Shown here piece after piece: positions 4,876 to 31,194 of a stretch of 31,194 nucleotides of DNA. Positions within the stretch are counted from its first letter, which is position 1. Every line of letters starts with the position of its first letter. Source of the stretch: Victivallales bacterium (GTDB lineage: Bacteria; Verrucomicrobiota; Lentisphaeria; Victivallales; JAADHT01); assembly GCA_016930955.1 (NCBI GenBank), contig JAFGFR010000211.1, positions 1 to 31,194 on the forward strand. The letters are read 5' to 3'. Made by a program: the position numbers and the translations under genes. A model generated the notes under the pieces. The model saw only the letters and a program-made list of their open reading frames with translations. It was not told where the DNA came from and ran no database searches.

Positions 4876-6221
4876 GCGGACACCTCTTTGGGTTTATGCC
4901 TGTCCTTAAACGCATTGATGCCATAATCAATGATCGGCGCGAACATATTGCCCAGAAGAATCGAGAACATCAACCCTCCGTTAAAGATCGAAAAATTACG
5001 AATGACCATGGTAGCGGCAGCAATGAGAATGCCGTAAAAAATCCTTCCCGGCTCCGTCCGTGGAGAACTTACCGGGTCGGTAGCCATAAAGAACGCCCCG
5101 AACAAAAATCCACCGCCTAAAACGGCCGGCCAGGCACCGGGAACCGGCTTGATGCCACACCAGAACAACACTTGGTTCAACGCAGCATAGGTGATTATGA
5201 CGGAAAGGATCGTCGTACGGCTGGCAGTTTTTGTCCAGTATAGATAAACCCCGCCGATCAAGATGAGAACCACGCTGGTAACACCCATGGTCCCACTGAG
5301 GCGCCCCAGGGTCAACGCATTGAAAAGCGTTGATTTGTCAACCTGAATCGTTTCGTAATCGGCAATTTCAAAAGGAATTTCAGCTGAATACACTGTCTTT
5401 TCGGCATCGGGGTCTAATGTCAGATTGCCCGATTTGAGACGGGCCATTGGTGTGGCTCCGGTCGTAACTATTGATCCATCCGCGCGGGTCGCAGTCGTCC
5501 ACTGCGTCAAAGCGCCCATGGGGCCTTCTGCGGCGGGAAGCCATATCCCGGTCAAAGCAACCGGGAAGCAGACATAGACAAAACAGCGCCCTGCCAGTGC
5601 AGGGTTGAAAATATTCCGCCCGAAGCCGCCAAATACTTCTTTGGAAAAGATGACGGCGAATCCCATTCCGACCGCCAGCACATGCCAGCCCACACCGGGC
5701 GGCATCACCAGCGCAAACAGCACGGCTGTCACCAGGACCGCTTCCGAGACCGGTTCTTTCCGGCGGCGGCAAAAAAACCATTCGAGCAAGAAACCCCAGA
5801 GACAGCAAAAAACAATCATCGCCAGAGAACGCCATCCGAAATAATAGACCGACCCAAACACGCAGGGCATCAAAGCAAGCAATACCTTCCTCATCGCCGG
5901 CTGTCGCCGCATGAGGGATTGTTTCTCTTGTGAGCCAGTTTCGAAACTACACGTGGCCGCGCGGCCTGCCATTTTGGATGCGAGGCCACGCCGATGCGGA
6001 AGTGGGCATGCCTGCCTGGTCTGCCCCGACCGATCCGGCGTGGCATTCGCGCCAAAAGAGCTTGCCGCCCAAAGGGTTGAGGCGGAGGCACAGCATACGC
6101 CACGGCGAAATGGCCAGCACAGACAGCTTAAAGTATGCACCAGCCATTTCGCCGCACCGCCTGCCGCGCCTGCGCTCCCAATGCGGTTCACGCGGAGTTT
6201 TGAAACTGGCTCTTGTGCCAT
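4872..6221 (-). CDS. nqrB: NqrB/RnfD family membrane subunit carrying an in-frame 95-codon repeat insertion after codon 3
   Basis: KEVFGGFGRNIFNPALAGR, TTGATP (FMN Thr), FMATDPVSSP and FSILLGNMFAP motifs. GAAGGGA SD-like sequence upstream of ATG 6221. Residues ~4-98 are translated repeat DNA; ATG 5912 is an alternative start. Confidence 0.85.
   Translation of the reverse strand: MAQEPVSKLRVNRIGSAGAAGGAAKWLVHTLSCLCWPFRRGVCCASASTLWAASSFGANATPDRSGQTRQACPLPHRRGLASKMAGRAATCSFETGSQEKQSLMRRQPAMRKVLLALMPCVFGSVYYFGWRSLAMIVFCCLWGFLLEWFFCRRRKEPVSEAVLVTAVLFALVMPPGVGWHVLAVGMGFAVIFSKEVFGGFGRNIFNPALAGRCFVYVCFPVALTGIWLPAAEGPMGALTQWTTATRADGSIVTTGATPMARLKSGNLTLDPDAEKTVYSAEIPFEIADYETIQVDKSTLFNALTLGRLSGTMGVTSVVLILIGGVYLYWTKTASRTTILSVIITYAALNQVLFWCGIKPVPGAWPAVLGGGFLFGAFFMATDPVSSPRTEPGRIFYGILIAAATMVIRNFSIFNGGLMFSILLGNMFAPIIDYGINAFKDRHKPKEVSA
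5932..6212. mobile_element. 281-bp MITE-like element (copy A) with ~19-bp terminal inverted repeats and 4-bp TSD TTGT
   Basis: Left end GAGCCAGTTTCGAAACTAC, right end GGAGTTTTGAAACTGGCTC; TTGT at 5928-5931 and 6213-6216; no transposase. Confidence 0.85.
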
Positions 6222-6304
6222 CTTTTAGAATCCCTTCAAATTATCAGCATCAACACATATAAGACAAAAATAAACCATGAACCTAAATATTAGCACTGTC
6301 ATCT

Positions 6305-6420
6305 GGCCATGGCGGGGCGACATGGCCCTACAACCCCGAATTGTGCCTGCCACGGCATAGCCTTGGCGAAGCCTGGAACCGTGTTGTGATTGCATCCACG
6401 GGTAGTTTTGAGATTTGCCA
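6305..6420. repeat. Degenerate repeat mosaic downstream of fprA: GGCCATG/CATGGCC hairpin, CGCCAAGGCTA REP-like module and a decayed right TIR
   Basis: Hairpin at 6305-6327; CCTGCCACGGCATAGCCTTGGCGAAG at 6346-6371; CCACGGGTAGTTTTGAGATTTGCCA at 6396-6420 matches the end of copy B (CCACGGGTAGTTTTGAAATTGGCTC). Confidence 0.65.
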
Positions 6421-7602
6421 CTACACAATGCCTAAAGTTCTGTGCCTGTCAAGAATATTGTCGGCCAATTCATCCAGAGCTGAATAAGTCTCCTCGGAAG
6501 GCATCCCTTTGGCCAACACCGGCTCGAATGCCTCGCATTTCAGGTTCCCCATGACTGCGGTCAATTGTTCGATCATTTTGCTGCCCCAGCCGTAGGAGCC
6601 GATAATGCCGACGAATTTGGTTTTTGGTCTGAGGGCATTGACCAGTGCGGCACAATAGATTGCCGATGGATGGGCTCCGACCAGAACCGTAGGGGAACCT
6701 AGGACGACAGTCGCCGCGTCGACCAATTCGATCACGATCTCTCCGATGTCGGCCACAGTCAGATTGAACAGCTTGACACCGACGCCACGGCTCATCAACG
6801 CCTCCACGAGATACTCTGCCATCTTGCGGGTACTGTCATGCATGGAGACGTAAGGGATGACGACCATGTTGCTGACCTTATCTTCGTTGATCCAGTCTTT
6901 GTATGCATCCACGATCAGCGCCGGGCGACTATAAACCGGACCATGGCTTGGCGCGATCATCTGGATATCCAGATCTTCAAGTTTTTTCAGATTGCCACGG
7001 ATTGAACCGCGGAACGGCATCATGATCTCTCCATAGTAGCGTCTAGCCGCTTCGAGCACGCGATGTTCGTCATCGACATACAGATTGCTGGCTGCCTGGT
7101 GCGAGCCGAAAAAGTCGCAGGAGAATAGAATATTGTCTTCCGGCAGCCACGTGCTCATCGTTTCCGGCCAGTGCACCCACGGGGTATAGATGAATTGCAG
7201 CGTTTTGTCTCCCAACGACAAGGTTTCACCGTCCTGAACCTCGATGAAACGATCCTCTCCGATATGCAGATGGTCCATCAACATTGATTTGCATTTGGGA
7301 TTCGTGACGATCTTAGCGCCCGGGTACACCCGCAGCATGTCCTGAAGACTGCCGGAATGATCCTGTTCGGCGTGATGACTGATGATGTAGTCGATCTTGT
7401 CAGCGCCAGCCTTGACAAGATGATCGATCAGCATCTCGACCTTGGTCGGGTCGACAGTGTCCAGCAATGCACTTTTCTCACTGCCCTTGATGAAGTAGGC
7501 ATTATAGCTGGTGCCATCCGGCAGCGGAATCAGTTCGTCAAACAGACGCCGATCCCAATCCTGAACGCCGACTTCATAAACATTCTTAACAAGTGTTCTC
7601 AT
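6421..7602 (-). CDS. fprA: FprA-family flavodiiron protein (metallo-beta-lactamase plus flavodoxin domains; O2/NO reductase family)
   Basis: DGTSYNAY, HHAEQDHSGS, HWPET, DFFGSH, APSHG, GSPT and GSYGWG motifs; GAGGTG SD upstream. Confidence 0.92.
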   Translation of the reverse strand: MRTLVKNVYEVGVQDWDRRLFDELIPLPDGTSYNAYFIKGSEKSALLDTVDPTKVEMLIDHLVKAGADKIDYIISHHAEQDHSGSLQDMLRVYPGAKIVTNPKCKSMLMDHLHIGEDRFIEVQDGETLSLGDKTLQFIYTPWVHWPETMSTWLPEDNILFSCDFFGSHQAASNLYVDDEHRVLEAARRYYGEIMMPFRGSIRGNLKKLEDLDIQMIAPSHGPVYSRPALIVDAYKDWINEDKVSNMVVIPYVSMHDSTRKMAEYLVEALMSRGVGVKLFNLTVADIGEIVIELVDAATVVLGSPTVLVGAHPSAIYCAALVNALRPKTKFVGIIGSYGWGSKMIEQLTAVMGNLKCEAFEPVLAKGMPSEETYSALDELADNILDRHRTLGIV

Positions 7603-7614
7603 AATTTCACCTCG

Positions 7615-29677: not shown

Positions 29678-29693
29678 GAAAAATCCTGTTGTC

Positions 29694-31010
29694 TTATTGG
29701 CCGATGTCCTTGAACTCTTTCATTCGTTCCCGATAGGCGCCTTGTGCCATTGACCCATCTAGCAGGGGGTCGCCGGTCCTTAGCATCCAATTGTGGAGCG
29801 ACCGGATCAGTTCAGTCCGAATGGTTGAAAAGTTCGGGTCATCTGCAAGGTTGTGCAGTTCATGCGGGTCGCTTTTAAGATCATACATCTCGAGGGGAGG
29901 ATGGTAAGGCACGAACATCCCAGACGCCTCCCAAGCGACCGCAACTTCCAGATAACCCTTTCCATTGTTGCCCGGATCGGGAGACGTCTCCTGGCCGGGG
30001 GTATGCTCGAAATTGGCGATTAGTTTCCAACGGTCGGTTCGGATCGCCCGCATGGGATCATAGTAGGTGTGATAAGTCTTCTCGGCGAAAATCGCTGGAT
30101 TCGGATCATAGCTCCCGCCCTGCAGCAGCGGCGCGAAGCTTCGTCCGTGTCCATCGGCTATCGGGGAGAGCCGGAGTAGCTCGAGGAGCGTAGGCAGGAT
30201 GTCCACATTGGAAACCATCGCCGTCTCGATGCGCGGCTCACCGATTCCCGGACCTCGAAACATCAATGGCACTTCGATCCCCGGATCGTAGAGAGTCATC
30301 TTCGCCCTTGGGAAAGCAATGCCGTGATCCGCGGTAAAGATTACCAGGGTATCCTCGCGCAACCCGGCGTTGTCTAGTGCTGAAATCACGCGCCCGAAAG
30401 CCTGGTCCATCGATGCGATGGATGCTTCCAAATCAGCGATATCCTCGCGGACACTGGGGATGTCGGGCAGATAGGGCGGCACCGTGACTGTGGCAGGATC
30501 AGACGCTTCCACATCATCATGCGGGAAGGGCCGGTGCGGTTCAAAAAAGCATACTTCGGCATAAAATGGGTCTTTATCACTTTCCCGATTTGAAAGGTAC
30601 TCATCAAAGGATGCTGCGACATCACGGGCAGGATTGCCGCCGTGCGTCCCGGCAAATCCGTGTTCCAGAGGTTTGCGGGTCTCGTGTTGTCCCCCGAACA
30701 CGTGGCAGTCGTATCCCGCCGCCGTCAGATGTTCTGCCAGATGTCGTTCCCCGGGCTTCAGATCATTGAGGAAGCCGCCATGACAAAGACCGACCACGCC
30801 GTTAGCGTGTGGGAAACGACCTGTGAACAGCGCGGCCCGCGATGGACTGCATTGCGGTGCCGTGCAGAAACTGTTGTCGAATCGGACACTTTCCCGGGCG
30901 AAGGTGTCAATGTTGGGCGATCGAACACCAGGCTTGCCGTAGCAGCCCAGATGCCGACCTAGGTCATGGCAAATAATAACGACAATATTCGGCGATCCGT
31001 TCATCATCAT
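29694..31010 (-). CDS. Cys-type formylglycine-dependent sulfatase (N-sulfoglucosamine sulfohydrolase-like), no signal peptide
   Basis: [28 protein letters not shown] (CxPSR), [46 protein letters not shown] precedes the ATG run at 31004-31010. Confidence 0.92.
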
Positions 31011-31110
31011 CTCCTGCATGGCCGCGCATATCGAGGGTTCCGGCGTACAAGCCACAATACCATCCGATGTGTTGGCGGCCATTCGTTTTGAGTGAATAAT
31101 CAGTACGTTC

Positions 31111-31194
31111 GAGCCAATTTCAAAACTACCCGTGGCCGCCCAAAGGGTTGGGGCGGAGGCACGGCATGCGCCACGGCGAAATGGCAGGCACAGA
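31111..31194. mobile_element. MITE-like element (copy E), truncated by the window end
   Basis: GAGCCAATTTCAAAACTACCCGTGGCCGCCCAAAGGGTTGGGGCGGAGGCAC...CGCCACGGCGAAATGG; near-identical to the reverse complement of the copy B right half and to an internal module of copy A. Confidence 0.8.

Follow-up and report, generated by a model that had tools for sequence, protein, structure and literature searches.

The contig JAFGFR010000211.1 of an uncultured Victivallales bacterium (assembly GCA_016930955.1), whose full length of 31,194 nucleotides is here called the window, carries between its genes several short repeats with inverted ends, some of them bordered by direct repeats of 4 bp. Their presence raises the question of whether they are mobile DNA and, if so, which enzyme moves them and how copies of such different length were formed. 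The results described below indicate that the repeats belong to a MITE family (miniature inverted-repeat transposable elements) that is very probably moved in trans by an IS1182-type insertion sequence of about 1.4 kb, and whose shorter copies derive from a 281-nt master by internal deletions.

In the metagenome-assembled genome (MAG) to which it belongs, here G000, the window is contig C323. This MAG is fragmented and comprises 2.70 Mb in 342 contigs with 54% G+C; its completeness is 72%, and the contigs kept have a minimum length of about 2.5 kb. The comparison set consisted of 251 Victivallales genomes; the relatives compared were a genome of the same genus (G001) and one of another family of the order (G015). 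The sole public run containing DNA of the MAG is a sediment metagenome (X1) of about 7x, which was used as contigs.

The 17-nt end GAGCCAATTTCAAAACT, searched with up to three mismatches, occurs 676 times in the genome, where about six matches are expected by chance (an arithmetic estimate); a 24-nt end pattern gives 442 matches, and the reversed pattern, used as a control, none in any of the 251 genomes. Merging leads to 598 loci, that is, one per 4.5 kb, which occupy 1.75% of the bases; the density of roughly one copy per 4-5 kb estimated in an earlier reading of the window, made without database searches (here the sequence-only reading), thus holds for the entire genome. The two end types distinguished there, L and R, were both found genome-wide, the 17-mer being followed by CCGCGTGAAC in 107 cases and by A/CCCCGTGGCC in 128. 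The ends form terminal inverted repeats of 17-24 nt, paired in inverted orientation, and delimit multicopy elements of 50-281 nt without a transposase gene; the sole multicopy open reading frames (ORFs) of the genome are frames running through the MITE itself. No Rfam family matches the MITE, and the 281-nt element has no match in plasmid and phage collections. Since a copy is truncated at 75 of the 684 contig ends, both copy numbers and completeness are underestimated, and the family accounts for the strong fragmentation of these Victivallales MAGs.

The copies are intergenic and avoid genes: crudely called ORFs cover 34% of the element bases versus 88% of the genome. Their orientation relative to the neighbouring genes is unbiased, both for paired ends and for solo ends (those with no partner within 420 nt and not cut off at a contig end), and the idea that solo ends are regulatory motifs was dropped on this ground.

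That the family is mobile DNA follows from the exact 4-bp duplications found at its GAGCC boundaries, which are present in 56 of the 129 complete copies having both ends and enough flank (43%), where chance would give about 0.5. Neither another duplication length nor another offset is enriched among these copies, and copies with 4-bp duplications are found in each of the size classes. The words duplicated vary in sequence; when the sites are pooled, a weak C|TNNA|G preference emerges, in AT-rich DNA. The sequence-only reading had proposed a MITE family with 4-bp duplications, mobilised in trans, and had suggested a genome-wide count of ends and duplications as a check; the count agrees with this proposal, and the family has no transposase of its own.

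The partner insertion sequence

An insertion sequence with ends like those of the MITE, called here the partner, is recognisable in G000 at six contig ends. Most repeat-terminated contigs continue with an L or R arm; three contig ends instead carry a variant end, GAGGTAATTTCAAAAGT, followed by the same AT-rich sequence, identical over 83-87 nt, which represents the partner left end, and three others continue with GAGCCAATTTCAAAACTATTGGCTTCC, the partner right end. From the flanks of these six contig ends two elements can be reconstituted, with GTTA and TGTT as their 4-bp duplications, which pairs contig C191 with C71 and C138 with C70 across the partner. Thus, the genome contains at least three near-identical partner copies, and the assembly has lost their interior; no transposase of the partner type was found in the window, as already noticed by the sequence-only reading, or in the assembled genome, and the latter contains no multicopy gene.

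The AT-rich partner end was found in 37 of the 251 genomes, and a full copy is present in a nearly closed one (L153, 182-1582). This element is 1401 bp long, with the ends GAGCCAATTTCAAAACTATT and GAGGTGATTTCAAAAGTATT, and contains a single ORF of 375 aa that matches DUF772 (E = 2.3e-10), DDE_Tnp_1 (1.7e-17) and DDE_Tnp_1_6 (3.5e-06), above the Pfam cut-offs. Over 17-19 nt, the MITE end is the same as the partner end lying beside the 3' side of the transposase gene; therefore, both ends of the MITE are of that type. In relatives and metagenomes, exact 4-bp duplications border 6 of 22 complete partner copies or deletion derivatives; duplications of another length are not enriched. In metagenome contigs an exact search with 35 nt of the left end gave nothing, and a degenerate 25-nt pattern identified 64 loci; metagenomes contain thousands of transposase relatives of about 372 aa, the contigs being mostly 1.3-2 kb long. 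Short deletion derivatives of the partner itself, of 195 bp and 303 bp and with the 4-bp duplications GTAG and AGCA, are present in other organisms (L171, corresponding to G244:C38 1781-1975, and the metagenome contigs L186 and L216); this type of element therefore yields MITEs repeatedly.

Among the NCBIfam models, IS1182 is the best transposase match, with 103.6 bits against a cut-off of 270, and the IS5 models also remain below their cut-offs; for this reason the partner is named IS1182-type (ISUnCu17-like) and is not treated as a certified family member. The nearest named relatives bear the annotation IS1182 family or IS1182-like ISUnCu17; their identity is 38-41% over no less than 96% of the protein. 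ISUnCu17, from an IncP plasmid of Aeromonas caviae (RefSeq annotation), has a transposase of about 370-390 aa with the same domains and 40% identity over 96%; its ends are GAGCCTCTTGCAAAA, its end motif GAGCCnnTTGCAAAA resembles the Victivallales GAGCCAATTTCAAAA, and it also makes a 4-bp duplication, ATGA. Differently from the MITE, it is an autonomous element, of 1.48 kb, and it is found in Proteobacteria. A further correspondence is provided by genome G046, where TTGCAAAAC takes the place of TTTCAAAAC in the MITE ends and the element encoding a transposase of 43% identity has the ends GAGCCTCTTGCAAAA, indicating that MITE and insertion-sequence ends vary together. To our knowledge, no MITE goes with ISUnCu17. 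The guess of an IS5/IS1182-like mobilising enzyme, made from the window, was therefore a good one, and the full insertion sequence with the same ends that it called for exists in relatives and, as ends with the matching duplication length, in G000.

We infer that the transposase of about 372 aa moves the MITE, according to the following scheme. A non-coding master of 281 nt, with inverted ends of 17-24 nt and differing subterminal L and R arms, would have moved by cut-and-paste, or by copying, through a DDE transposase acting in trans, each insertion duplicating 4 bp of the target. The copies would have shrunk by internal deletion, either in place or before further jumps, giving a colinear series with lengths of 281, then about 200 and about 100, and finally 50 bp, beyond which come 20-25-bp palindromes and one-ended stumps. 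The source of the transposase would be the ISUnCu17-like insertion sequence of about 1.4 kb, whose right end equals the MITE end over the 17-19 nt mentioned above.

Several observations weigh against this scheme. The partner interior, including the transposase gene, is absent from the assembly of G000, which may be due to the smallest contig kept being of about 2.5 kb; G001, which is 85% complete, has about 300 MITE ends and no partner end. Most full-length partner copies from metagenomes are without duplications, a condition that is common for insertion sequences. MITE and partner have in common just their 17-19 terminal nt, and the MITE interior is unrelated; the MITE is thus no simple deletion derivative of the partner. 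No exact empty site was recovered: the orthologous intergenic regions of G001 have no copies downstream of lpxC and DUF1846 and have others elsewhere, and they are too diverged for exact alignment; the contigs of the public run show no clean empty-site joint, the depth excess over the element in this run being roughly 50- to 200-fold. Finally, simple transposition does not account for the one-ended copies, of which there are about 247. Most of them resemble the master for 15-35 nt and no further, and L and R ends are equally frequent among them; we read these solo ends as one-sided deletions and old remnants.

Some of these points would also suit a genuine MITE moved by another, unseen transposase, the IS1182-type element being just similar in its ends. 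The shortness of the common stretch, the unrelated interiors and the hundreds of MITEs of G001, where no partner end is found and many other contigs of IS4/IS5/IS1182 type are present, all go in this direction. However, no other insertion-sequence contig has related ends, whereas the partner corresponds to the MITE in end sequence, in duplication length and in the co-variation of ends seen in G046, and partner ends are found at contig breaks in both G000 and G015; the existence of a different mobilising enzyme is thus considered unlikely.

Other candidates for the role of the partner were rejected. Ten IS4/IS5/IS1182-type contigs of G001 (L009-L018, L141, L142) have ends unrelated to the MITE ends; one of these, L011, carries a stray MITE end beside an unrelated transposase of 541 aa. 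The insertion-sequence contigs of this set are of about 10 different kinds, 1.6-2.8 kb long, and the assembly of G000 contains none of them. A transposase was also sought between end pairs lying 400-1500 bp apart in the window's genome, and just ordinary genes between two separate copies were found. ISAzo13 (PF07592), considered for its 'GA' ends and duplications of 0-4 bp, gave no match in a search that also gave none in control genomes and is thus uninformative; the IS427/IS1031 type (PF13586) gave no match. A likeness of the ends to those of IS6/IS26 (a TTGCAAA core) was dropped, as IS6 makes 8-bp duplications and the real partner was found.

The hairpin-targeting behaviour of IS1272-like IS1182 elements was also discarded for the MITE. 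IS1272-like elements insert in or next to palindromes or terminators, and their duplications are variable and often long; the present family does not target palindromes and has a fixed duplication of 4 bp. Flank complementarity is 0.18-0.34 per position versus 0.25 in controls, with no sign of hairpin targeting. Around the duplication, the empty sites as reconstructed show no palindrome, and their folding is weaker than that of genomic sites taken at random (-4.8 versus -8.5 kcal/mol).

The 281-nt master and its shorter forms

The size of the copies is highly variable, and the sequence-only reading had explained their interiors by a swapping of internal modules. Active exchange or reshuffling of GC-rich modules by recombination between copies would make the interiors mosaics; their lengths do vary widely, short GC-rich blocks recur in differing contexts, and 23 of the 130 two-ended copies contain interior stretches that are not explained by the master. 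However, all the 130 copies are colinear with one 281-nt master, in a single orientation and with no inversions or changes of order, and in 85 of them the master accounts for 90% or more of the sequence; moreover, every module named in support of swapping lies in the master, in the same order. Also the junctions at contig ends, as read from the sequences, fall on short motifs common to both sides, e.g. CTCCGC and GGCCGC. Module exchange is thus very unlikely, and the complete copies differ from one another by internal deletions, which may have arisen by slippage or abortive gap repair at the shared motifs.

Sixteen copies have the full length of 281 nt, with a mean mutual identity of 88%. The profile built from them retrieves 511 pieces from the genome; their coverage is U-shaped, about 190 and about 280 at the two ends and about 95 in the middle of the element, with diffuse break points. 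An L end is paired with an R end in 68 copies and never with another L end, as expected from one founder.

At the lower end of the series, about 24 copies are exactly 50 bp long and consist of the two ends only. The 40-60-bp class comprises 31 copies, 11 of which are bordered by duplications of 4 bp, and the uniform length suggests that the 50-bp unit is itself copied. Palindromes of 20-25 bp, made of the outermost pieces of the ends, occur at nine sites of the genome, one of which is in the window (7615-7634), and two of the nine have 4-bp duplications. The series of 281, about 100 and 50 bp, together with the 20-bp stumps, represents a natural set for studying the substrate needs of an IS1182-type transposase. 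One copy, on contig C170 of G000 (about 5082-5180), contains a microsatellite: after its R-type end, four units of GGTTTCA are followed by at least four units of AACCGTG (7-nt units).

For the master copy of the window (5932-6212) the predicted structure is a hairpin, long and branched, of -159.5 kcal/mol (z = -10); for the short copies simple hairpins are predicted. Such strong predicted hairpins, the many solo ends, a sequence kept across distant hosts and the presence of Y1 transposase genes in all three MITE-rich genomes would be compatible with a repeat of the repetitive extragenic palindrome (REP), bacterial interspersed mosaic element (BIME) or REPIN type, spread by a REP-associated tyrosine transposase (RAYT), or with a non-mobile structural or regulatory palindrome under selection; this is the least credible of the explanations, since the exact 4-bp duplications of 43% of the copies have varied words that are neither part of the element nor a fixed target motif, HUH/Y1 elements (IS200/IS605, REPINs) make no such target duplications, the Y1 genes have no linkage to the repeat, one being an IS200 with its own hairpin and one being itself cut by the MITE, and the ends have neither an orientation bias relative to genes nor an Rfam match. 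In G015, a Y1 (IS200/RAYT-type) transposase gene is found at 89-440 of L021 (G015:C77), its 3' end being cut by a MITE insertion.

Distribution and related systems

Only three MAGs have the family in high copy number: the 24-nt end pattern, which has 442 matches in G000, has 299 in G001 and 386 in G015. Four other genomes have 9-31 matches of a variant, and 233 of the 251 have none. At the DNA level, the genes of the window are 77-83% identical to those of G001 and 65-69% to those of G015. Conversely, the MITE consensus sequences of the three genomes differ at 10-17 of 281 positions (94-96% identity), that of G001 being closer to G015 than to the window's genome, and both partner ends are identical over 25 nt between the latter and G015. 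The MITE is thus conserved far beyond the host genes, which excludes neutral vertical descent and makes a horizontal transfer of MITE and partner as a pair the simplest reading; selection on the MITE sequence is the alternative. We tentatively propose, with slightly less than even confidence, that the pair moved horizontally between Victivallales families of sediments and then expanded independently in each to hundreds of copies, which occupy about a tenth of the intergenic DNA, with the 50-bp class itself transposing. If this is true, the 50-bp class is among the smallest mobile elements and defines the minimal substrate of the partner transposase. The gap between the identity of the MITE consensus and the 65-69% of the host genes makes the family a usable marker of DNA exchange in uncultured bacteria of the Planctomycetes-Verrucomicrobia-Chlamydiae (PVC) group.

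No paper linking Victivallales with MITEs was found in the literature, and nothing was found on this family; in this respect the sequence-only reading was right in calling it undescribed. The same does not apply to the kind of element, as MITEs derived from IS1182-family elements have been published: MITEPye1, which accompanies ISPye18 in Paracoccus yeei, is likewise non-coding, has inverted ends like those of an IS1182-family element, direct-repeat borders and a predicted hairpin, and its mobilisation in trans has been proposed (PMC11578231). It differs from the present family in copy number, with 1-3 per chromosome versus about 600 loci in 2.7 Mb; in the Victivallales family, moreover, the deletions form a series that reaches 50 bp, the L and R arms are asymmetric, the host belongs to another phylum and there is evidence of spread between host families. 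Bacterial MITEs of variable size with truncated copies are also well known, as in the case of Chunjie (Geobacter) and QMITE2 (Coxiella) (PMC10969869); similarly to the Victivallales family, these are intergenic and consist of a full-length form and many shorter or truncated copies, some without one end and the duplication. Their ends and their partner family are different, and the Victivallales family is denser and has a discrete 50-bp class made of ends only. Thus, the family is new and its kind known; it stands out by its density, the 50-bp ends-only class, the one-ended stumps and its conservation across host families, and it leaves the understanding of how MITEs work unchanged.

Copies in the window

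The copies and remnants of the window (Table 1) lie where the sequence-only reading had placed them, including the two with 4-bp duplications; the sole exception is the copy at 15235-15306, described as 72 bp long, which is instead a one-ended fragment one nucleotide shorter. The element at 28461-28566 is a nested insertion, as it lies within the older end at 28441-28460. In the copy at 12953-13053 the first base is A instead of G.

Table 1. MITE copies and remnants in the window.
Feature	Position	Strand	Remarks
Full-length 281-nt MITE	5932..6212	+	R-type end left, L-type end right; TTGT duplication 5928-5931 / 6213-6216
Solo R-type end remnant, about 25 nt	6396..6420	-	Directly 3' of the stop of the flavodiiron-protein gene
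20-bp micro-palindrome	7615..7634	.	Outermost pieces of both ends; most reduced form of the element
101-nt internal-deletion derivative	12953..13053	-	L end left, R end right; no duplication kept
One-ended 71-nt L arm	15235..15305	-	Master positions 211-281; without second end; abuts the stop of an AraC-type gene
Older R-type end, split by the next element	28441..28460	+	Overlap of its first bases with the DUF1846 gene's TGA stop
106-nt derivative	28461..28566	-	Inserted into the older end; TACC duplication 28457-28460 / 28567-28570
R-type end joined to master positions 133-192 (internal-deletion variant)	31111..31194	+	Contig ends within the element

Two copies touch the coding sequence of neighbouring genes. 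The 281-nt copy follows the third codon of an RnfD/NqrB-type gene (5850-6221, minus strand), and the frame starting from the ATG at 6221 is open across the entire element, with 95 added codons; the gene, therefore, either starts at an internal ATG (5912) or has an N-terminal insert of 95 aa. The TGA stop codon of the DUF1846 gene, at 28440-28442, overlaps the start of the old element end, suggesting that the insertion supplies or replaces this stop.

A stretch of 6.2 kb of the window (1414-7646), which contains Rnf/Nqr-like genes, the 281-nt copy and the flavodiiron gene, has flanks that are just 17 bp apart in G001 (L131, corresponding to G001:C35, 2709-2726); its right border lies beside the 20-bp micro-palindrome.

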